Virus record (IMG/VR): IMGVR_UViG_2778261572_000015
DNA from: a virus
Taxonomy: Duplodnaviria > Heunggongvirae > Uroviricota > Caudoviricetes
DNA length: 4,111 bases
Reading direction: 5' to 3' (one strand)
Shown here in pieces: positions 1 to 4,111 of the stretch (position 1 is the stretch's first letter; each line of letters opens with the position of its first letter). A program made the translations under genes and the position numbers. The notes under the pieces were generated by a model. That model did no database searches. It was not told the DNA's origin and saw only the letters and a program-made list of their open reading frames with translations.

Positions 1-1011
1 TTATAACGTCACTCCGCCTTTTAGAGGATTCAGCGCGACGGCATTTTGCAGGTAGTCAGGCGCAAGGTGCGCATAGGCCATCGTCTGCTGAATGCTCGCA
101 TGTCCCAGAATCTGTTGCAGTGCGATTATATTGCCCCCATTCATCATGAAATGGCTTGCGAATGTATGCCGCAGGATGTGGGTTGCCTGATTGGGTGGTA
201 TATCTGGCTTCACTCTGCGTAAAATCCCGCAAAACTTCTCATAATCAACTTTGAATAATTTAGCGCTGGCCTCCTCTTTAACTTTTTTCTCCAGTTCCTC
301 AGAAATCGGCACGGTTCGCTTTTTACCGTTTTTGGTTTTCAGGAAGGTAACCCTGCAATTTGTAATCTGTGCTGGTTTTAGCGTGGCAACTTCCGTCCAT
401 CTTCCTCCAGTGCTCAGACATAAAAGTGCGACAAGTAAGTCATCACCATCCAAAACATTTAACAGTTTTTCGATTTCTGCTTTTTCCAGGAACGTCATTT
501 CAGGGTTGGCCTCCGCCAGTGGCGGCAGTCCGTGAATTGGGTGTTGCCCGGAAAATTCATCCAATTGAATTAATTTTGTGAACATGCCGGATAATCGGTA
601 CATGTCACGGTTTATCGTTGCGGCACTGATACCATCACGTAGTCGCATGGAACGATAATCCATCAAAGCTCTTTTGCTCATCCGGCTCACTGGTATATCA
701 CCTATGCCGCTGATGGTTTTGAGCAGATGATTAAACTCTTTTGTTCCATGCTCGTGGTTTTGCCCGTGATATTTCCACCAGATGTTCAGCAACTCACTCA
801 AAGTTCTGCGATCTGCTCGCTGACCTGCCCATTCTTTCTGGCTGGCGTAGGCGATTGTGTATCGCTCAAATGCTACAGCCTCAGCTTTTCTTTCAAATTT
901 CCTGCGGATGCGTTTTCCGTCGCGACCGCGAGGTCTAATGTCCACTTCATAGCGTCCATCATCGAGCTTCTTAATTGACATAAGAAAGCCCTCTGACGCT
1001 GTATTCACCAT
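1..1011 (-). CDS. int: Tyrosine-type site-specific integrase (P2 Int-like). Longest ORF is 336 aa from the ATG at 1011; an alternative in-frame ATG at 981 (MSIKKLDDG..., 326 aa) has a much better Shine-Dalgarno (GAGGG 8 nt upstream).
   Basis: Translation carries the tyrosine recombinase catalytic signature: conserved Arg in LSTGGRWTEV, then HILRHTFASHF and LGHASIQQTMAYAHL (H-x-x-R-H ... Y). Size about 330 aa and position next to a small repressor match P2-type integrases. The window starts exactly at its stop codon (TAA, complement of 1..3). Confidence 0.93.
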   Translation of the reverse strand: MVNTASEGFLMSIKKLDDGRYEVDIRPRGRDGKRIRRKFERKAEAVAFERYTIAYASQKEWAGQRADRRTLSELLNIWWKYHGQNHEHGTKEFNHLLKTISGIGDIPVSRMSKRALMDYRSMRLRDGISAATINRDMYRLSGMFTKLIQLDEFSGQHPIHGLPPLAEANPEMTFLEKAEIEKLLNVLDGDDLLVALLCLSTGGRWTEVATLKPAQITNCRVTFLKTKNGKKRTVPISEELEKKVKEEASAKLFKVDYEKFCGILRRVKPDIPPNQATHILRHTFASHFMMNGGNIIALQQILGHASIQQTMAYAHLAPDYLQNAVALNPLKGGVTL

Positions 1012-1050
1012 CTTGGTAACAAATGGTGAAAATGTAATGTTTATAGAGTG

Positions 1051-1344
1051 TTAACCAGTCTGTTTTTCGGAGTGGTCTGATTCTGTTGGTTTTTGCCCAA
1101 TGTGTGCGAGAGCCGGCGCGATCTGACCAGCTTGTGGTGACGTATCACCAGTCATTAACCAGAGCGTATATTTTTTAAATAAAGGCGTATTTGTGACTCG
1201 CATAACGATGCTGAGACCAGGGTCTTTATGCCCACTTTCGTAATTTTTGACTGTTCCTAGAGCTATCCCGCTAATTTCGCTGAATTTCGCCTGTGTTAAG
1301 CCTTCTGCTTTCCTAATCGCTTTCAGTTTTTCGAATGTCTGCAT
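1051..1344 (-). CDS. C: Phage immunity repressor, P2 C-type (97 aa, small HTH repressor)
   Basis: 97-aa ORF immediately upstream of and co-oriented with int. The N-terminal part has an HTH-like segment (LTQAKFSEISGIALGTVKNYESG). The C-terminal motif KYTLWLMTG...GQIAPALAH matches what I recall of P2-family C repressors. It faces a rightward early promoter, as expected for a switch. Confidence 0.78.
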   Translation of the reverse strand: MQTFEKLKAIRKAEGLTQAKFSEISGIALGTVKNYESGHKDPGLSIVMRVTNTPLFKKYTLWLMTGDTSPQAGQIAPALAHIGQKPTESDHSEKQTG

Positions 1345-1373
1345 TTGACAGTAACCTATTGGTGACTTATATT
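1345..1373 (+). promoter_or_regulatory. Candidate early promoter (Pe-like), sigma70 type: -35 TTGACA (1345-1350), 17-bp spacer, -10 TATATT (1368-1373)
   Basis: Read directly from the sequence: exact consensus -35 hexamer, optimal 17-bp spacer, 4/6 match at -10. It is oriented toward the cox-like operon and begins at the nucleotide after the repressor start codon, so the repressor mRNA must originate further right and read across it (face-to-face arrangement). Confidence 0.55.
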
Positions 1374-1400
1374 CCCGTTAAAAGGTTGTGTATTGGTGAC
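1357..1400. repeat. Two perfect 10-bp direct repeats TATTGGTGAC (1357-1366 and 1391-1400), candidate repressor operator half-sites flanking the -10 element
   Basis: Exact 10/10 direct repeat, centre-to-centre 34 bp. One copy lies in the promoter spacer abutting the -10 hexamer, the other 18 bp downstream of it. P2-type repressors are known to bind direct (not inverted) repeats flanking the -10 of Pe. Confidence 0.45.
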
Positions 1401-1496
1401 CTTTTGAGTGTGTTAGCCAGTCCCTAGAAAGGACAGGTGCGACCTAGAAGGGACTGGATCTAATAAGGGTAACACGAAAGCAAAAAGGGCTAATCA

Positions 1497-1769
1497 ATGG
1501 AAGTCAATGACTATGTGATTCAGTACCCGATTGATGCGGTACATACGGTTAAGTTTGCAGAGTTACTTGGTAAGCCAGAAACGGCTGTAGTCAAGATGGT
1601 AAAAGAGAATAAGTTGCCAGTTATTGAGCTTCGTGATCCAAGTAAGCCGAACGCTCGTGTCGGTGAGAAGTGGGTTTTCATTCCAGAGTTTAATCGCGCT
1701 GTACGAGAGGCGTTTTATAACCGACCAGTTGAACAGCGTGATGCATGGCTTTTGTGGATGGGGTTGTGA
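1497..1769 (+). CDS. cox: Cox-like protein (excisionase / directionality factor and repressor of the lysogenic promoter), 90 aa
   Basis: First gene of the rightward operon, divergent from the repressor. Size (90 aa) and motifs KLPVIELRDP...GEKWVFIPEFN...RP.EQRDAWLLWMGL fit my recollection of P2 Cox. Good RBS (AAGGG, 7 nt upstream of ATG 1497). Confidence 0.68.
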   Translation: MEVNDYVIQYPIDAVHTVKFAELLGKPETAVVKMVKENKLPVIELRDPSKPNARVGEKWVFIPEFNRAVREAFYNRPVEQRDAWLLWMGL

Positions 1770-1771
1770 TT

Positions 1772-1942
1772 ATGAGTGAACCGCGTTGTATTGCTCAGTT
1801 ACTGCGTAACGAAAGCCCCAGGGCGATTGACTTCACCATCACCCACGGTAAGGGGCGTAAGGGAATCATTATCCGCACCAAAAAACAGAGTCCGTTAAAA
1901 AAGGCTCTGACCTTTCTGAAAAGCCGGAGGGTATGGAAATGA
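1772..1942 (+). CDS. Small, highly basic hypothetical protein (56 aa from ATG 1772; the ORF track's longer form starts at 1745 inside cox)
   Basis: ATG at 1772 lies 2 nt after the cox stop (TGA 1767-1769), with a G-rich stretch upstream. The product has about 15 Lys/Arg and 3 acidic residues. It sits where P2 carries a small ORF between cox and B. Function unknown. Confidence 0.5.
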   Translation: MSEPRCIAQLLRNESPRAIDFTITHGKGRKGIIIRTKKQSPLKKALTFLKSRRVWK

Positions 1943-2439
1943 CAGTGATGACGCTCAATCTCGTTGAAAAACAGCCAGCAACTATGCGCCGGATAATTGG
2001 TAAGCATCTGGCCGTCCCTCGCTGGCAGGAGACATGCGATTATTATAATCAGATGATGGAACGTGAACGGCTAACGGTTTGCTTCCATGCGCAGTTAAAA
2101 CAGCGTCACGCAACGATGCGTTTTGAAGAAATGAACGACGTCGAACGTGAACGACTGGTATGTGCAATTGATGAATTGCGTGGGGCATTCTCAAAACGCC
2201 GTCAGGTTGGTGCAAGTGAGTATGCATATATTAGTTTTTTAACAGTCAGTCAGCGTCGCACTTTATTTATGCACGCACGACTGACAGAAAAAGAATTTAA
2301 CCAGCCATACTGGCGAATTAATGAAGAATCATGTTACTGGCGTGATGCTTTATTCCGTGCATTACGTGAATTATTCAGTCTGTTTGAGTATGCACCGACA
2401 ATTCTGACGTCGGTAAAACCAGAGCAATATCTGCATTAA
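1939..2439 (+). CDS. B: gpB-like early replication protein (P2 B is needed for lagging-strand synthesis / DnaB helicase recruitment), 166 aa
   Basis: Assigned by synteny and size only: P2 B is 166 aa as I recall it. The preferred start is ATG 1939 (GGAGG at 1926-1930, 8-nt spacing), which overlaps the upstream stop as ATGA (1939-1942). The ATG at 1933 offered by the ORF track has only a 2-nt spacer. Confidence 0.5.
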   Translation: MTVMTLNLVEKQPATMRRIIGKHLAVPRWQETCDYYNQMMERERLTVCFHAQLKQRHATMRFEEMNDVERERLVCAIDELRGAFSKRRQVGASEYAYISFLTVSQRRTLFMHARLTEKEFNQPYWRINEESCYWRDALFRALRELFSLFEYAPTILTSVKPEQYLH

Positions 2440-2502
2440 GTAATTAACCAGAGTTTTTAACGCACTTAATTGTGCGGGGCTTCTTTTTGCCTGGAGAAAG
2501 TC

Positions 2503-2727
2503 ATGCATACAGTTTCTGAAAATCAGTGCGGTATATACGCATTACTGCTGCAACAGGCCAGAACCGAAGCACAGGCCGACGCTGCGACGCGCTTTTCTTC
2601 TCATCTTGACGCCATGATTCGCCACATCACAAAGGCGGAGTTATCCCGCGTGGAGATAGTCGAGCTGCTCAGTCAGGAGTCGGAAAAATTTCACAATATC
2701 GGATTGTCTCGTGGGGAGGTGCTTTGA
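2503..2727 (+). CDS. Hypothetical small early protein (74 aa from ATG 2503; the ORF track's start at 2470 is a TTG)
   Basis: GGAG at 2493-2496, 6 nt upstream of ATG 2503. Its stop (TGA 2725-2727) overlaps the next start. No motif I recognise. Confidence 0.5.
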
Positions 2728-3029
2728 TGTCCTGTTCTCATTCAGTTGTATTACTGAATAACGCCTTAAAAATCGCCGTTATGGAAAATGGCGATTTGTC
2801 TCTTATTCAACTTGGTCTTGATAAAGAAAAGCGCGACATAACTGAATCTGTTATCGCGATTTATCAGAGCGAATTAAACCTCCTGTCTGATGTGATCAAT
2901 TTACTTGTGAAACGCGCTGTATTTCACAAGCAAATTTCCTCAGTGGATGAACTGACAAAATTAACGACAGAACTCGCCAGCTATTGCGCTGATGAATTTA
3001 AGAAACTGAACGACAAAAGGAACTGGTAA
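2727..3029 (+). CDS. Hypothetical protein, 100 aa, AT-rich coding sequence
   Basis: Start ATG 2727 overlaps the upstream stop (TGATG). GGGAGG at 2714-2719 gives a strong RBS. Its stop (TAA 3027-3029) overlaps the next start. Local GC is about 38-40 percent from my hand count, clearly lower than the flanking genes. Confidence 0.55.
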   Translation: MSCSHSVVLLNNALKIAVMENGDLSLIQLGLDKEKRDITESVIAIYQSELNLLSDVINLLVKRAVFHKQISSVDELTKLTTELASYCADEFKKLNDKRNW

Positions 3030-3253
3030 TGCCGGACAACGTAGATTTCATTCAGGAACAACAGGCTGAATTACTGGAGCGCCAGATTAACGCGGCAAGG
3101 GTAAAACATTGCGGTGCTTCTGCGCTGGTTTGCGAAGAGTGTGACGCGCCAATACCTGCTGCCCGTCGTGCGGCTTATCCGTCAGCCACGCGTTGTGTTT
3201 CCTGTCAGTCAGTCTTTGAAGCAAAAAACAAACATTACCGGAGAACGGCATGA
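3029..3253 (+). CDS. TraR/DksA-family C4 zinc-finger protein (74 aa)
   Basis: C-terminal CEECDAPIPAARRAAYPSATRCVSCQ...KHY carries two CxxC pairs with the PIP-x-x-RR spacing typical of TraR / lambda Orf73-type RNA polymerase secondary-channel binders. Start ATG 3029 overlaps the upstream stop (TAATG). Confidence 0.8.
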   Translation: MPDNVDFIQEQQAELLERQINAARVKHCGASALVCEECDAPIPAARRAAYPSATRCVSCQSVFEAKNKHYRRTA

Positions 3254-3525
3254 GTATTCGTATTGAAATTGGCGAACGTTATGTCGTTACCAGTGACAGC
3301 TTCCAGTTTATTCTCCACGAGAAAAAGAGAGCGGAAAGCGGTAAAAACGCCGGTCAGGAATGGCTGGCGGTGGTTGGTTATTACCCGAAATTAAGCCAGC
3401 TCGTTTCCGGCCTGATGCATCACGATATTCTGACCGGAAGCGCAAAGTCTTTTGCTGATTTAAACGCGCAGGTTGAGCAACTCAGCAAGCGTTGTTCAGA
3501 GGCTTTTGGCTCATATGGCCGTTAA
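3250..3525 (+). CDS. Hypothetical small early protein (91 aa)
   Basis: ATG 3250 overlaps the upstream stop as ATGA (3250-3253). GGAGA lies 5 nt upstream. Its stop (TAA 3523-3525) overlaps the start of the next ORF. No recognisable motif. Confidence 0.5.
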   Translation: MSIRIEIGERYVVTSDSFQFILHEKKRAESGKNAGQEWLAVVGYYPKLSQLVSGLMHHDILTGSAKSFADLNAQVEQLSKRCSEAFGSYGR

Positions 3526-4111
3526 AGCCTCCGGGCGTTTTGTCCCTCCGTCAGCATTTGCTGCAGGCACCGGTAAGGCGTTTACCGGTGCTTATGCATG
3601 GAACGCGCCACGCGAGGCTGTCGAGCGCGAAAGACCCCTTACACGTGACGAGATGCGTCAGGTGCAAGGTGTTTTATCCACGATTAACCGCCTGCCTTAC
3701 TTTTTGCGCTCGCTGTTTACTTCACGCTATGACTACATCCGGCGCAATAAAAGCCCGGTGCACGGGTTTTATTTCCTCACATCCACTTTTCAGCGTCGTT
3801 TATGGCCGCGCATTGAGCGTGTGAATCAGCGCCATGAAATGAACACCGACGCGTCGTTGCTGTTTCTGGCAGAGCGCGACCAGTATGCGCGCCTGCCGGG
3901 GATGAATGACAAGGAGCTGAAAAAGTTTGCCGCCCGAATCTCATCGCAGCTTTTCATGATGTATGAGGAACTCTGCGATGCCTGGGTGGATGCGCATGGC
4001 GAAAAAGAATCGCTGTTTACGGATGAGGCGCAGGCACATCTGTATGGTCATGTTGCTGGCGCTGCACTGAGAGATCCCCTCATAATTTCCCCAAAGCGTA
4101 ACCATGTGTGA
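3515..4111 (+). CDS. A: N-terminal portion of a gpA-like replication initiation protein; the frame closes with TGA at 4109-4111 after about 198 codons (212 in the ORF track, which starts at a TTG at 3473)
   Basis: Last gene of the coupled early operon, at the position of gene A in P2-type genomes. The ATG at 3515 (MAVKASGRFVPP...) is the likely start. P2-family A proteins are roughly 700 aa or more as I recall, so this product is either truncated or a different protein. Identity rests on synteny and recollection of the N-terminal sequence. Confidence 0.45.
   Translation: MAVKASGRFVPPSAFAAGTGKAFTGAYAWNAPREAVERERPLTRDEMRQVQGVLSTINRLPYFLRSLFTSRYDYIRRNKSPVHGFYFLTSTFQRRLWPRIERVNQRHEMNTDASLLFLAERDQYARLPGMNDKELKKFAARISSQLFMMYEELCDAWVDAHGEKESLFTDEAQAHLYGHVAGAALRDPLIISPKRNHV

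Follow-up and report, generated by a model that had tools for sequence, protein, structure and literature searches.

Why does an open reading frame (ORF) that sits where P2-like phages carry gene A close so early? The DNA analyzed here, a stretch of 4,111 nucleotides that we call the window, ends with such a frame. It runs from ATG 3515 to TGA 4109-4111, a length of 198 codons. The list of ORFs extends the same frame upstream to TTG 3473, which would give 212 aa; the alignment with the replication endonuclease gpA begins at residue 1, which corresponds to ATG 3515. The first-pass annotation, made from the letters of the window alone, had noticed that the frame closes after about 200 codons and that the other two frames also stop within the last 60 nt. 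Both observations are correct, the additional stops being TGA 4068-4070 and TAA 4099-4101. As causes it considered a replication-defective prophage, a disrupted gene, for example by an insertion just past the window, and a sequencing error. It also named the alternatives that full-length homologues are only about 200 aa long and that the frame continues downstream after a correctable frameshift. We find it very probable that IS10-right has interrupted the gene A which a P2-like prophage carries here and that the 198-aa product is that of a fusion pseudogene.

The window covers the early region of a P2-like prophage of the Peduovirus type. When aligned to two intact relatives, Escherichia phage 899 and the prophage of E. 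coli D10, bases 1-4066 show 98.7% identity and not a single gap. All nine genes upstream of gene A are intact (Table 1). The window was taken from contig NLMV01000073.1 (22,125 bp) of assembly GCA_002229415.1; a literature search for this assembly found no mention of it. The prophage lies directly downstream of cpxP, and the D10 prophage occupies the same position as that of the source contig. This P2-like lineage seems to use the site beside cpxP repeatedly for attachment. The edges of the window are the edges of gene calls: position 1 belongs to the integrase stop codon, and position 4111 to the stop of the shortened gene A ORF.

Table 1. Features of the window, in order of position. Cells are empty where no value is given.
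Feature	Position	Strand	Remark
Integrase	1-981	minus	
C-type HTH repressor	1051-1344	minus	
Cox	1497-1769		
65-aa ORF	1745-1942		
B	1939-2439		
DUF2732			after B, before the first DUF5405 gene
DUF5405, first copy	2727-3029		
TraR/DksA zinc-finger protein			between the two DUF5405 genes
DUF5405, second copy	3250-3525		directly before gene A
P2-family gene A (gpA, a replication endonuclease), 5' part with codons 1-184 of about 758-761	3515-4066	+	BLASTP and DNA matches
9-bp IS10 target site GGCGCTGCA, copy left of the element	4058-4066		directly precedes the first IS base
IS10-right inside end, first 45 bp, next to the transposase C-terminus	4067-4111	-	identity to R100 IS10-right; continues past the window
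IS-encoded ORF tail, 14 codons LRDPLIISPKRNHV and TGA 4109-4111	4067-4111	+	translation; gpA alignment ends at residue 184
3' end of the IS10 transposase gene, last 9 codons THGYALGKL and stop 4080-4082	4080-4109	-	translation

Three details of the upstream region concern starts, names and repeats. The integrase frame is open upstream to ATG 1011 (336 aa), and the gene calls of the source contig and of the relatives start at 981 (326 aa). The phage 899 record names the 65-aa ORF 'tail fiber protein' and lists the two DUF5405 paralogues under 'replication initiation protein'. For the same ORFs the RefSeq record of D10 and precomputed Pfam hits give hypothetical protein and DUF5405, and the names in the phage 899 record are probably annotation noise. 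Finally, the switch region between C and cox contains two kinds of direct repeat, TATTGGTGAC (two copies, 1357-1366 and 1391-1400, 34 bp apart) and CCTAGAARGGACNGG (two copies, 1423-1437 and 1443-1457, 20 bp apart), together with a 9-bp inverted repeat (1417-1425/1449-1457). By analogy with P2, these repeats are probably operator sites, putatively bound by the repressor and by Cox.

The last ORF had been assigned to gene A by synteny, and this assignment is sound. The order int-C-cox-B-...-A is the same in phage 899 and in the D10 prophage, and the protein sequence agrees with it: in a BLASTP alignment with the 758-aa gpA from Escherichia phage 899, 183 of the first 184 residues are identical (E = 9e-134). 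Nothing aligns beyond residue 184. The same limit is found at the DNA level. Megablast matches 75 P2-like phages at 95-99% identity, and every one of these matches ends at query position 553-557, which is 4067-4071 in the window. Matches to genes annotated as 'replication endonuclease', listed among the best E. coli hits, end at this point as well. The boundary of gene A homology lies exactly at 4066, and past it no likeness to gpA is found in any frame.

A side observation concerns the numbering of chromosomes. Of the 25 best complete E. coli chromosome records, 13 match window positions 3900-4067 at record positions 386-553. These 13 records therefore open, at base 1, with the ATG of prophage gene A. 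Apparently, assembly-rotation software chose the replication gene of a prophage as the start of the chromosome, which would make this numbering an artefact.

What, then, follows position 4066? The sequence from 4060 to 4111 matches more than 1100 plasmids, where it is annotated as 'IS4-like element ISVsa5 family transposase'. Compared to IS10-right of Tn10 (R100, NC_002134.1), all 45 bases in the window are identical, as are all 139 bases up to the end of the contig. IS10-left has 6 mismatches in the same 139 bp. The IS sequence at 4067 starts with the terminal nucleotide of the element, and bases 4067-4111 form its terminal inverted-repeat end. Of the 1329 bp of IS10, 45 bp are present in the window and 139 bp on the contig. 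Read on the opposite strand, the translation THGYALGKL* agrees fully with the C-terminal end of the IS10-right transposase from R100 (...FTHGYALGKL*). The stops that close the three frames, TGA 4068-4070, TAA 4099-4101 and TGA 4109-4111, all lie in the IS10 bases 4067-4111.

Downstream of 4111 the contig runs for another 94 bp, all of it further IS10-right, and then ends. An insertion does disrupt the gene, as had been proposed, but it does not begin just past the window; it starts inside, at 4067.

The frame could also close early through a frameshift or a sequencing error, or because the gpA-like protein is naturally about 200 aa long. A short ORF, taken alone, is what each of these predicts. 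Yet the sequence after 4066 is not gpA-like in any frame; it is IS10-right, identical at 139 of 139 positions, which rules out a sequencing error or correctable frameshift. A naturally short gpA is ruled out by the size of its homologues, since nearly all of the best 120, from across the Enterobacteriaceae, measure 730-780 aa. Taken together, these explanations have a negligible probability.

At the junction between gene A and IS10, the nine bases directly in front of the element are GGCGCTGCA. Phage 899 and E. coli D10 carry the empty site, ...gttgctGGCGCTGCA|cgtgctttcaat..., with a single GGCGCTGCA. The target consensus of IS10 is 5'-NPuCNNNGPyN-3' (quoted in PMC2758499), and its preferred target core is GCTNAGC (PMC2744996). 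GGCGCTGCA fits the consensus, but of the 6 bases that the preferred core specifies it shares only 4. It is nearly identical to GGCGCTGCT, the 9-bp duplication that flanks an IS10-family copy on plasmid p.CT30-P1, a copy bounded by ctgagagatcccc... and ...ggggattcatcag. A break at the exact terminus of IS10, next to a target that is compatible with the consensus, is the expected outcome of transposition; neither a chimera nor a sequencing error would give it.

Such a chimera could arise during assembly. In this case the path through gene A would have been joined to an IS10 copy from elsewhere in the genome, and the real gene would be intact. That the contig ends in a repeat is in line with this scenario. 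A random chimera, however, would not give both a switch at precisely the terminal base of IS10 and a 9-mer in front of it that fits the consensus, and the contig continues for 139 bp into the element at 100% identity. We therefore consider an assembly artefact highly improbable.

Transposition of IS10-right into gene A would account for the locus as follows. The element, which belongs to the IS4 family and is the active IS of Tn10, would have transposed into gene A of the prophage that lies beside cpxP on a chromosome of the E. coli type. The insertion point lies between 4066 and 4067, after codon 184, with GGCGCTGCA as the target. Translation from the start of gene A now enters the inside end of the IS, proceeds for 14 codons and stops at TGA 4109-4111, yielding 198 aa. 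The contig stops 139 bp into the element because short-read assembly failed to resolve an IS that is present in multiple copies.

If the insertion was simple, as we infer, it would have duplicated 9 bp and left the 3' remainder of gene A in the genome. The remainder would then be expected on another contig, behind the outside end of IS10 and a second GGCGCTGCA. More precisely, a simple insertion predicts the outside end ...GGGGATTCATCAG, followed by GGCGCTGCA and by cgtgctttcaat... (gene A from codon 185 onward), and the right junction should read ...CATTAGGGGATTCATCAG GGCGCTGCA CGTGCTTTCAATATTTCCCCG...

Searches of genome collections did not return either junction. The exact left junction between gene A and IS10 occurs in 0 of 5,426 complete E. 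coli genomes; where matches in these genomes reach partway into the flank, they belong to other IS10 copies at similar targets. Among the GTDB representative genomes there are 0 matches to the left junction and 0 matches to the predicted right junction, AGGGGATTCATCAG followed by GGCGCTGCA and CG. A protein search with residues 202-758 of the phage 899 gpA leads to a single 90% cluster of 21,920 members (P0001), which contains all E. coli-type sequences, fragments included, and so does not set the fragment of this assembly apart.

Instead of a simple insertion, a rearrangement promoted by IS10 or Tn10 (an adjacent deletion, an inversion or an 'inside-out' event) could have brought the IS10 end to gene A. 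Such an event would have deleted or moved the 3' part of the gene, possibly along with more of the prophage. The end that is joined to gene A is of the inside-end type, and inside ends are those used in the inside-out rearrangements of Tn10. A lone IS10, however, also has one inside and one outside end, and hence the type of the end does not discriminate between the two possibilities. Similarly, the other junction was not recovered from the searched collections and the contig ends inside the IS, but a contig break in a multi-copy IS is the usual outcome of short-read sequencing and requires no rearrangement. Moreover, solitary copies of IS10/ISVsa5 are very common and occupy thousands of sites across E. 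coli genomes. A rearrangement is therefore an unlikely explanation for the locus, and a simple insertion is much the most parsimonious one.

The insertion of IS10-right separates the ORF from the catalytic region of gpA. In the full-length protein the Pfam domain Phage_GPA (PF05840) spans residues 133-462, with a score of 412.8 bits over profile positions 1-321. The product encoded in the window scores 18.3 bits, which is below the Pfam gathering score of 31.4 bits, and it covers only profile positions 1-54 of 321. Thus the window ORF does not contain a complete Phage_GPA domain, and with a score below the cut-off and a partial profile it is a gene fragment and not a functional member of the family. 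The motifs of the catalytic region are affected in the same way. Intact relatives carry HWH at residues 399-401 and YIAKY at residues 450-454, which includes Tyr450 and Tyr454; both motifs lie past the break at residue 184. Following the P2 literature, we take HWH to be the HUH-type metal-binding motif and Tyr450/Tyr454 to be the catalytic pair. The expectation that a product this short would lack the nicking domain was thus borne out.

In P2, gpA nicks the origin and so starts rolling-circle replication; it is reported to act in cis. The 198-aa product lacks most of Phage_GPA, the HUH-type motif and the two catalytic tyrosines, and the prophage would not be able to start rolling-circle replication by itself unless the IS is precisely excised. 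Because HWH and Tyr450/Tyr454 lie far past the break, the prophage is, judging from its domain content, probably replication-dead. A replication-defective prophage was among the causes listed at the outset; here it would follow from the insertion.

Both gene A of the P2 family and IS10-right are textbook entities, and a prophage gene interrupted by an IS is commonplace. The locus has little importance except for how it is annotated: the right entry for the 198-aa ORF is a gene A fragment, a pseudogene joined to the end of IS10, and not a short replication protein. There are nevertheless two practical points. Gene content alone is no basis for calling this prophage intact or inducible, and where an ORF closes abruptly in all three frames near the end of a contig, this is typical of an IS terminus.

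The orientation of the element allows some speculation. The outward promoter of IS10, POUT, is located near the outside end. Its existence and direction have been described (PMC2744996). If the orientation inferred for this copy is right, POUT would read in the sense direction towards what is left of gene A on its 3' side and towards the accessory genes that follow. The insertion could then lock the prophage, by killing its replication, and at the same time express the downstream cargo constitutively, a domestication in one step. We regard this scenario as decidedly doubtful. A simple sigma-70 scan of the outside-end region of IS10 gave no consensus match, a result that is uninformative about a promoter that is already known.

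How does the locus compare to known systems? Its closest counterpart is the 758-aa 'replication endonuclease' of phage 899 and Yersinia phage GMG73 (P2 gpA; PF05840; an HUH-type initiator), with which it shares the first 184 residues at 99% identity. As in phage 899, gene A follows int, C, cox, B, DUF2732, DUF5405, the TraR/DksA zinc-finger gene and a second DUF5405 gene. Unlike the gpA of phage 899, the window ORF is without residues 185 to about 758 and carries 14 unrelated residues encoded by the IS in their place. The other half of the fusion resembles IS10-right of Tn10 on R100, which carries the NCBI annotation name 'ISVsa5 family' (IS4 family): the two agree at 139 of 139 positions from the inside-end terminus inward, the transposase ends in THGYALGKL*, and the 9-mer at the target fits the consensus. 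In contrast to Tn10 in R100, the end of IS10 abuts a prophage gene here and not tetD. Hence the element is most simply understood as a solitary copy of IS10.
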